Assembly (NCBI RefSeq): GCF_056746865.1
Contig: NZ_CM163382.1
Reading direction: 5' to 3' (one strand)
Length of the DNA: 64,000 bases
Each line of letters begins with the position of its first letter. Within the stretch, counting starts at the first letter, position 1. The notes beneath the pieces were generated by a model. That model was not told the DNA's origin. It ran no database searches and worked only from the letters and a program-made list of their open reading frames with translations. The position numbers were made by a program, and so were the translations under genes. Shown in pieces: positions 2,867-3,196 of this stretch.

Positions 2867-3196
2867 TAAATATGGTCATATTTATTTACTTTACATAGAT
2901 AAAGTCTAAAGATGGCACTTCCTTTAAACTCAACTACCTATGATTTAGAGTGGTTGTCCGGCCTGCTTCCGTAACCGTTAGTTCGACTGACGAGATTCCT
3001 GTTTCCCTCTAAAAGACTTGGTTGATTAAAACAGGTCACCGAATAGCCATTTAGTCCACTTTGACCACGAAGCGACCGAACTAACTGAGCAGAAGGTCCG
3101 TTATGAGCGAGGAACGGAAGTTCACAGTTGATCTCACACCCAAATAGTCGCATTACTAACATTGCTGCGTGTTAATCAACAGGCAGCAGGTCACTC

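Follow-up and report, generated by a model that had tools for sequence, protein, structure and literature searches.

Two anti-phage genes in an AT-rich island of Escherichia coli converge on a 330-bp gap (2867-3196) that is non-coding and for which the RefSeq annotation is empty. The question raised by this locus is what the gap represents. The sequence-only reading had suggested a non-coding RNA (ncRNA) or a recombination site. The window, by which we mean the whole stretch of 64,000 nucleotides analyzed here, is part of an E. coli chromosome, as indicated by the presence of MicA, the argQZYV-serV tRNA cluster and IS3-type elements, and the gap itself is 100% identical to E. coli chromosomes. 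Its left neighbor (1796-2866, + strand) is a PD-T7-5-type anti-phage gene (PADLOC PDLC04110, E = 1e-101), and its right neighbor (3197-4294, - strand) is a DS-11 CBS-domain anti-phage gene (404.9 bits against a cut-off of 260 for NCBIfam NF053863, which is an equivalog-level model for DS-11). The convergent gene arrangement had thus been read correctly. Below, the two genes are considered as the cargo of putative cassettes 1 and 2, respectively.

The gap had also been described as GC-enriched relative to its flanks, which holds. At 42.4% GC it is richer than PD-T7-5 (36.3%) and DS-11 (40.7%), but not than the window as a whole (49.2%), which means that it stands out from its neighbors and not from the genome. 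The contrast is uneven, with 27.4% GC in the AT-rich first 73 nt and 46.7% in positions 2940-3196. Taking this composition as a sign of foreign, structured DNA was judged right. The full 330 bp is found at an identity of at least 99% in only 128 of the 5,426 complete E. coli genomes, and PD-T7-5, the gap and DS-11 travel together as one clone (128-130 E. coli genomes, at least 99% identity). Since the locus is clonal in E. coli, its movement is not visible within this species.

All three nested inverted repeats that had drawn attention to the gap are present, two of them at positions 2-3 nt from those first given. Specifically, cttccgt (2966-2972) pairs with acggaag (3114-3120), gttagttcg (2977-2985, first placed at 2975) with cgaactaac (3077-3085, first placed at 3074), and cctgttt (2998-3004) with aaacagg (3029-3035). 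Exact 7-mer inverted pairs number 11 in the gap, against 3.6 +/- 2.5 expected from 500 dinucleotide shuffles, of which 5 reach 11. The folding energy is ordinary and lies inside the shuffle range on both strands (z = -1.37 on the + strand and -1.50 on the - strand).

Anatomy of a dispersed repeat

The right-hand part of the gap belongs to a dispersed repeat. The last 100-130 nt have matches of 70-89% identity in 676 more E. coli genomes and on approximately 1,150 plasmids, mostly from Klebsiella, and the matching DNA is unannotated throughout. Relatives of the repeat occur in about 15% of E. coli genomes and in many Enterobacterales. Scanning viral contigs for the core pattern gave 80 prophage loci, and the retrieved DNA as a whole contained 114 full cores, 91 of them distinct (individual loci are referred to below by L numbers). 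The 69-nt core consensus consists of a first palindrome, HP1 (GTCCGCT-cnTGGCACag-AGCGGAC), an 18-nt linker and a second palindrome, HP2 (GTCYGCT-ntGAGCGAnn-AGCGGAC). Both palindromes have a 7-10-7 layout in which 7-bp inverted arms surround a 10-bp spacer, and conservation is 90% or higher in the columns of arms and spacers.

The window contains two copies. The repeat copy B that had been noted in the gap is real, since a partner, copy A, was found at 1667-1735 on the + strand (nhmmer core model, E = 4e-14). Copy A is a 69-nt core only, with HP1a at 1667-1690, a linker, HP2a at 1709-1732 and no IS-like arm, and it lies directly upstream of PD-T7-5. This gene is therefore bracketed by direct copies A (1667-1735) and B (2987-3194).

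Copy B is more elaborate. It is preceded by the tail of cassette 1 (2867-2986), a lineage-specific non-coding stretch with an AT-rich start that is matched in near-identical E. coli only; in fact, matches to the first ~188 nt of the gap (2867 to ~3054) are confined to the 128 near-identical E. coli genomes. Within this tail, the short segment 2966-2985 repeats part of the HP2 arm and linker in inverted orientation, as judged from inverted 9-mer and 7-mer matches. Copy B then starts with a decayed left terminal repeat (2987-3053, + strand), an inverted IS3-like arm with indels that reads TGACGAGATTCCTGTTTCCC...GGTTGATTAA. It was delimited by alignment to an intact unit of Pectobacterium (see below), and a small search with the inverted repeat (IR) model gave a match to it on the - strand (2999-3034, E = 0.01). 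The 24-bp palindrome HP1b, of the TGGCAC-spacer type, follows at 3054-3077 (+ strand; core model E = 5e-15) and is degraded (GTCCACT TTGACCACGA AGCGACC). The core alignment places the linker between the palindromes at 3078-3095 and the 24-bp palindrome HP2b, of the GAGCGA-spacer type (GTCCGTT ATGAGCGAGG AACGGAA), at 3096-3119, both on the + strand. Next comes a spacer (3120-3151, + strand) which alignments show only in the subtype of the window, the Klebsiella plasmids and L208. The unit closes with a right terminal repeat (3152-3194, + strand; IR model E = 3e-10), the terminus of which (3193/3194) is 2-3 nt from the DS-11 stop codon.

From end to end, positions 2987-3194 align with an intact 174-bp unit of Pectobacterium (L069:295-468), in which HP1, linker and HP2 lie in this order between two IS-like arms that form terminal inverted repeats. 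The outer inverted repeats seen at first in the gap are accounted for by this IR-HP1-HP2-IR unit, in which the left arm has decayed by indels and HP1b is degraded. The terminal arm of 42-47 nt shares about 90% identity with the left inverted repeat (IRL) of a 1,222-bp IS3-family IS that is common in Enterobacterales and present on 3,062 plasmids. This homology was found by a pattern scan of one genome per species, and the ends of the IS were read in Leclercia. In the IS, a hairpin (GTCCTCA-N9-TGAAGAC) abuts the IRL at the position equivalent to HP2; the core portion of the conserved part is not IS sequence. A target-site duplication is absent from copy B, the flanks of which differ (CGAC at 2983-2986 versus CTCT at 3195-3198). 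Intact IR-HP-HP-IR units were not found in the viral contigs, and none of 72,556 plasmids gave a full-length match.

Coding and RNA readings of the gap

A 74-aa ORF on the - strand (2938-3162) had already been dismissed as an artefact, and we reject it as a protein as well. It belongs to a protein cluster of five members, of which each named member is from E. coli, and it has no PADLOC or NCBIfam match. It runs through the non-coding repeat without a conserved open frame: in-frame stops occur in 21 of 80 relatives, no fewer than in the other frames, and no frame is preferentially open. A pseudogene remnant is unlikely too, as DNA-level searches with 2867-3053 match nothing outside the clone. 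ERIC and REP elements, retron msr/msd, ωRNA and oriT were dropped on reading the sequence and for lack of Rfam matches or neighbor genes. A σ54 promoter, prompted by the TGGCAC motif, was dropped because the -12 element is absent.

The main claim of the sequence-only reading, an ncRNA, was not supported. A search of positions 2750-3300 against Rfam returned nothing at the gathering score, and the best match at relaxed thresholds was at chance level (a snoRNA, 25 bits against a threshold of 63). The gap region has no tRNA or tmRNA, positions 2600-3500 contain no intrinsic terminator, and a promoter scan gave nothing convincing and nothing above expectation. Structure prediction fared no better, as the fold does not exceed that of shuffled sequences and covariation is lacking. 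For the latter we used 80 distinct, ungapped 69-nt cores with 14 stem pairs. Pairing was observed in 87.2% of the stem cells compared to 86.7% in column shuffles, only 7 of 1,120 cells had double-sided changes, and the covariation score was equaled by 58 of 500 shuffles. The arms of the palindromes vary independently, as exemplified by columns 46 and 63 (CG 30, TG 31, TA 8, CA 7), and the spacers are conserved as strongly as the arms. Together, these features are the signature of a double-stranded DNA site in which two inverted arms for protein binding surround a spacer, rather than of a folded RNA.

What could still speak for an RNA-level element, be it a structured sRNA or shared 3'-UTR hairpins that stabilize or terminate both convergent mRNAs, is that convergent genes need 3' ends while a canonical terminator is absent here, that there are two hairpins with conserved loops, and that G-T pairs slightly exceed A-C pairs in the stems (67 versus 44). 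The empty Rfam searches, the unremarkable folding scores and the covariation no higher than in shuffles contradict it, and so does the placement of the repeat. Its orientation to the neighboring genes varies, with cargo on either strand, and it is found upstream of, downstream of and between genes. We therefore regard an RNA-level element as very improbable and are highly confident that the gap represents a junction repeat derived from a mobile element and not an RNA gene.

Joints between backbone and cargo

The position of the relatives gives a clue to what the repeat joins. In numerous mobile elements unrelated to one another, they always lie exactly at the meeting point of conserved backbone with variable cargo, and their neighbors are as varied as McrBC, a GIY-YIG nuclease, a Septu-like pair in an e14-type prophage and dynamin-like genes. 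In each case inspected, similarity among relatives ends sharply at ...GAGCAGGTCA, directly beside the variable gene, and in the relatives the breakpoints between backbone and cargo fall in the HP2 spacer. The cargo is often related to defense, as with PD-T7-5, DS-11, McrBC, Septu, DarTG, PDC-S06 and dynamin-like genes, with PADLOC matches for 6 of the 10 cargo proteins tested. One HP adjoins a Qat system in L222. Plasmid homologues of DS-11 and PD-T7-5 reside in unrelated contexts (Rhizobium, Aliivibrio, Erwinia ICE-type T4SS regions), and HP sites were not found flanking them.

A large subfamily occupies one lambdoid-prophage hotspot, beside a gene for a 130-aa winged helix-turn-helix (wHTH) protein, a DUF968 gene and an antiterminator. 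The adjacent DUF968 protein has an HNH-like motif. At the left junction of this hotspot, 20 different cargoes of 1.0-5.8 kb were found. Here, the sequences agree at 90% or more as far as the end of the HP2 spacer GAGCGA; in the 3' arm the agreement is down to 50-80%, and past this arm it is no better than random. At the right joint the pattern is the reverse: similarity is random up to the variable 5' arm of HP1 and identity is at least 99% from TGGCAC onwards. These profiles imply that the 3' arm of HP2 and the 5' arm of HP1 arrive with the cargo, each cargo having its own, and that backbone meets cargo inside the palindromes. The switch in conservation occurs within the spacers of HP2 and HP1. 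Resolution is limited by the conservation of the arms, and megablast places crossovers no more finely than these arms. At the right boundary, 11 different cargoes join at one point, where they share about 12 nt (AAC plus the 5' arm).

Other loci show the same modularity. In L149 an internal full element lies between two cassettes, and L180 shares the first of these (99% identity) and then diverges. L074 contains a run of three cores, all in one orientation, and two or three cores are present in L130 and L132. The same core with its cargo also occurs behind unrelated upstream DNA. Many cassettes start with the IS-like arm after the HP2 arm, and some end with the inverted arm before the HP1 arm; the termini of the arms therefore face the cargo.

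Such joints might arise through the transposase of an IS3-family element acting in trans on the unit or on adjacent DNA, as in mobile insertion cassettes or one-ended transposition, in which case the palindromes would be leader hairpins inherited from the IS. The close similarity of the arm to the IRL of a widespread IS and the IS hairpin in the position of HP2 fit this idea, as do the exact abutment of cargo to the arm termini and two inverted arms around 3.9 kb in L012. Yet with termini that face the cargo, the cargo is located outside the repeats, many cores are armless (copy A, L130 and most prophage copies), target-site duplications are absent, and breakpoints fall in the palindromes and not solely at the arm termini. 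Transposition by an IS3-family enzyme is accordingly an improbable explanation. The likeness to IS3-family IS, MITEs and mobile insertion cassettes consists of the terminal 42-47 nt that match an IRL, an intact unit of about 175 bp without a transposase, and terminal inverted repeats that match an autonomous IS, as in MITEs (in the right arm, the left arm being decayed). Unlike MITEs, the repeat has neither target-site duplications nor families of near-identical full-length copies, and its halves are usually kilobases of cargo apart, with their termini facing that cargo.

The main rival to a site-specific explanation is that the repeat is passive. It would then be a decayed non-autonomous IS derivative, a MITE-like scar, which provides 70-170 bp of homology for shuffling by RecA or Red/RecET without the involvement of a dedicated recombinase, much like lambdoid 'linker' sequences. 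These boundary sequences are likewise short, conserved and located at module borders in prophages, beside moron-like cargo. They differ from the present repeat, which also occurs on plasmids, in P4-type islands and in the chromosomes of other orders and which has a defined palindromic architecture and a link to a recombinase. Passive homology would accommodate the IS3-like terminal repeats, the many lambdoid-prophage copies that have no small recombinase nearby, and crossovers that are not resolvable inside the conserved arms; the lack of covariation means that structural selection need not be invoked. It is harder to reconcile with the meeting of 11 cargoes at one point of the hotspot where only about 12 nt are shared, with spacer conservation across bacterial orders that exceeds what is expected of a neutral scar, and with the rarity of full-length units and the absence of target-site duplications. 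Taken together with the half-site described below, these observations make a passive repeat less likely than not.

A small tyrosine recombinase and putative cassette exchange

The window contains a gene for a small tyrosine recombinase of 204 aa on the - strand, 1.4 kb to the right of the gap. It is split by an IS: tblastn placed the C-terminal part (aa 124-204, with a match to Pfam Phage_integrase) at 4651-4893 and the N-terminal part (aa 1-129) at 6189-6569, both on the - strand, and between them lies an IS3-family IS on the + strand (4887-6190, ends approximate) with an ALIL frameshift pseudoknot at 5222-5338. An undisrupted gene is found in strain 2017C-4173W12, WP_001305361.1 of E. coli Nissle is an intact protein, and 868 of the 5,426 E. 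coli genomes have the recombinase. The ~200-aa protein consists of the Phage_integrase catalytic domain only, with no recognizable core-binding domain, and a solved structure for it was not detectable by sequence.

In about 740 of the 868 genomes, homology to the window locus ends 45-50 nt past the stop codon of the recombinase gene. This end coincides with the outer edge of an HP1 half-site. The stretch that follows the stop codon is a GC hairpin and then TGCCAGAAACGGAC, which on the other strand reads GTCCGTTTCTGGCACAG, that is, the HP1 5' arm plus the TGGCAC spacer. The half-site (4606-4622, + strand), which was delimited by the homology stop, the junction alignment and conservation, is the border at which cassette 2 ends and the integrase module begins. 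The GC hairpin (CAGGGCTGC-TGTT-GCAGCCCTG; 4620-4641, + strand) connects it to the integrase stop codon and shows compensatory stem changes between genera.

This layout is conserved. Recombinases that are 76-96% identical occur across Enterobacterales, Proteus/Providencia, Idiomarina and marine Gammaproteobacteria. The HP1 half-site lies ~30 nt (28-30) past the recombinase stop codon in E. coli, Proteus, Idiomarina and marine contigs, and the order of stop codon, hairpin and half-site is kept in Idiomarina, Proteus and a marine contig, where changes in the hairpin are compensatory. When the half-site is compared in eight contexts, its 5' arm varies with the cargo, while TGGCAC and the recombinase side remain constant. 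The fixed distance of this half-site from a highly conserved recombinase in such distant genera speaks against a passive repeat. The first cargo next to the recombinase ends distally in an HP2-type palindrome in Idiomarina (a 6.9-kb eptA/PhoPQ cluster) and in Proteus (a single GNAT gene), and in an HP2-type site in E. coli L130 (ETEC_3214) and L129; in the marine contig HP2 was not found. Within each locus the element is oriented opposite to the recombinase gene. Cassettes with sites in a single orientation that start by the recombinase gene were found in the window and in L130, L132, L074, L149, L166, L213 and L219.

On this basis we propose, with moderate confidence, that the gap is a DNA-acting junction between two mobile cassettes of an integron-like array, in which HP1 and HP2 are putative recombinase sites. 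On the + strand the array would run from copy A through the PD-T7-5 cassette, copy B and the DS-11 cassette to the HP1 half-site and the recombinase. HP1 and HP2 would serve as core recombination sites of two mutually incompatible types, distinguished by their spacers (TGGCAC and GAGCGA), and the small recombinase near the array would bind and act on both. Strand exchange inside the spacers would allow the DNA from one HP2 to the HP1 that follows it to be inserted, excised or swapped, and cassettes may move as units. The recombination-site part of the sequence-only reading is supported by the backbone/cargo joints at the palindromes and the half-site by the recombinase; that this recombinase uses these sites is what we infer. 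Several observations count against the cassette reading. The spacers of tyrosine recombinase sites are typically 6-8 bp, and those of the HP palindromes are longer (10 bp). The recombinase lacks a recognizable core-binding domain, its relatives of ~50% identity have a hairpin after the stop codon without the TGCCA..AGCGGAC motif downstream, and neither a circular nor an empty-site form was detected. The recombinase is, moreover, mostly missing at the lambdoid hotspots, being present only at L166 and L181; there, it might act in trans, or another enzyme might be responsible. With HP1b degraded, the left arm decayed and the recombinase gene interrupted, the local copy is probably inactive by now, a fossil.

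The closest known systems are integrons and the pdif modules of Acinetobacter plasmids, and a check for the defining features of both showed that the present system has neither set. As in integrons, the array has a tyrosine recombinase at one end, with a special proximal site beside the recombinase gene, and cassettes mostly of one or two genes, anti-phage cargo included, carry imperfectly palindromic sites in one orientation. Unlike integron integrases, the recombinase is a catalytic-domain-only protein of ~200 aa that reaches 56.6 bits against a cut-off of 220 for the XerA/integron-integrase model, and its gene and the array are not divergent. The sites also differ, being 24-bp palindromes with 10-bp spacers, of two types and without a GTTRRRY core: neither the 69-nt consensus nor the copy in the window has R''/R' core sites (RYYYAAC ... 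GTTRRRY). Their sequence is conserved here, beyond structure, and the arrays reside inside prophages, islands and plasmids. The pdif modules are similar in that discrete accessory modules are bounded by short palindromic sites of the tyrosine-recombinase type, occur in many plasmid contexts and have a mechanism deduced mainly from comparative anatomy. The dif site is 11-6-11 with the XerD arm TTATG.TAAAT; HP1 and HP2, in contrast, are 7-10-7 and do not resemble this consensus. Moreover, a dedicated small recombinase is linked to a half-site, and two site types alternate instead of forming inverted pairs. Finally, Cre/lox and FLP/FRT share with the HP sites the inverted arms around a spacer, and the use of two spacer types per cassette is reminiscent of engineered cassette exchange. 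The HP arms are shorter (7 bp versus 13 bp) and their spacers longer (10 bp versus 8 bp), and the system considered here is natural and putative.

More tentatively, and judging from comparative sequence data, the repeat could be part of a previously undescribed, widespread cassette system of Gammaproteobacteria, built from the ~200-aa catalytic-domain-only recombinase, two heterospecific sites and an IS3-armed carrier unit of ~175 bp. We consider this possible but less than probable. Through such a system, prophages, islands and plasmids may swap cassettes by natural recombinase-mediated cassette exchange, the candidates being PD-T7-5, DS-11, McrBC, Septu and DarTG, but also the eptA/PhoPQ cluster, the GNAT gene and iron uptake genes. 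Full-text literature searches by sequence string or concept did not return a description of the element, which is not proof of its absence, and the abstract of the paper on the prophage sRNA svsR shows no link to it.

Should the palindromes be real recombination sites, they would account for the movement of single anti-phage genes among the prophage hotspots, P4-type islands and plasmids of Enterobacterales. The HP2 ... HP1 signature could then be used to delimit cassettes and to find new defense genes, and a compact recombinase with two incompatible sites would be added to the toolbox for cassette exchange. In that case, given the eptA/PhoPQ-type cassette of Idiomarina, resistance determinants may also be moved by the system. 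If the repeat is a passive scar only, it is still a useful marker of module boundaries, and it cautions that GC-rich palindromic intergenic gaps are not automatically ncRNAs.

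Core repeats and non-defence cargo

A further copy of the double-palindrome core (HP1-linker-HP2) was found at window 1667-1735, where it lacks the IS-like arm. This copy lies immediately upstream of the anti-phage gene PD-T7-5, which is therefore bordered on both sides by direct repeats. In an island of E. coli 25DN and Nissle (fetched loci L130/L131:11676-17501), two full cores in direct orientation flank an operon for a TonB-dependent receptor and ABC iron uptake, and the cargo of such cores therefore extends beyond defence genes.

On the chromosome of Idiomarina sp. X4 (L213:8630-15535), a 6.9-kb cluster is located between a recombinase half-site (the HP1 5' arm and its spacer) and a lone HP2 palindrome. 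It encodes a PhoQ/PhoP-like two-component system, an EptA-type phosphoethanolamine transferase, PAP2, DAGK and a sulfatase, and could be a lipid-A-modification cassette of the colistin-resistance type. Another lone HP-type palindrome was observed on an Erwinia pyri plasmid (L222:19715-19745), immediately downstream of the Qat anti-phage operon, at its qatD end. In Acerihabitans arboris, two inverted IS-like arms enclose 3.9 kb (L012:10564-14441), in which the small recombinase and its half-site are accompanied by a cold-shock-domain protein, a ricin-type lectin and a RelE/antitoxin pair; the segment looks like a transposon-like form of the cassette/recombinase system.

Insertion sequences in the recombinase gene and junction repeat

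The small tyrosine recombinase gene of the window is split by an IS3-family element at 4887-6190, comprising orfA (4941-5267), orfB (5264-6154) and an ALIL frameshift pseudoknot (5222-5338). At the same locus in strain 2017C-4173W12, the gene is uninterrupted.

On E. coli plasmid pAW1.7_1 (L003:2950-4027), an IS110-family element interrupts the junction repeat and separates its linker from HP2 (insertion between …AAG and GTCCGCT). Integron attC sites are targets of IS1111 elements, and this insertion is reminiscent of that targeting.

Prophage hotspot and tRNA calls

A conserved DUF968 protein adjoins the cargo hotspot on its left side in lambdoid prophages L140, L148 and L149. Its C-terminus is Cys/His-rich with an HNH-like motif (…CMCCGQPADDAHHLIGWGQGG…CRKHHRALH), and the protein could be an alternative nuclease working at the hairpins.

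Within the window, ARAGORN called a plus-strand tRNA-Arg(tcg) at 51737-51808 that overlaps tRNA-Arg(acg) on the minus strand (51752-51828); the plus-strand call is probably a mirror-strand false positive.
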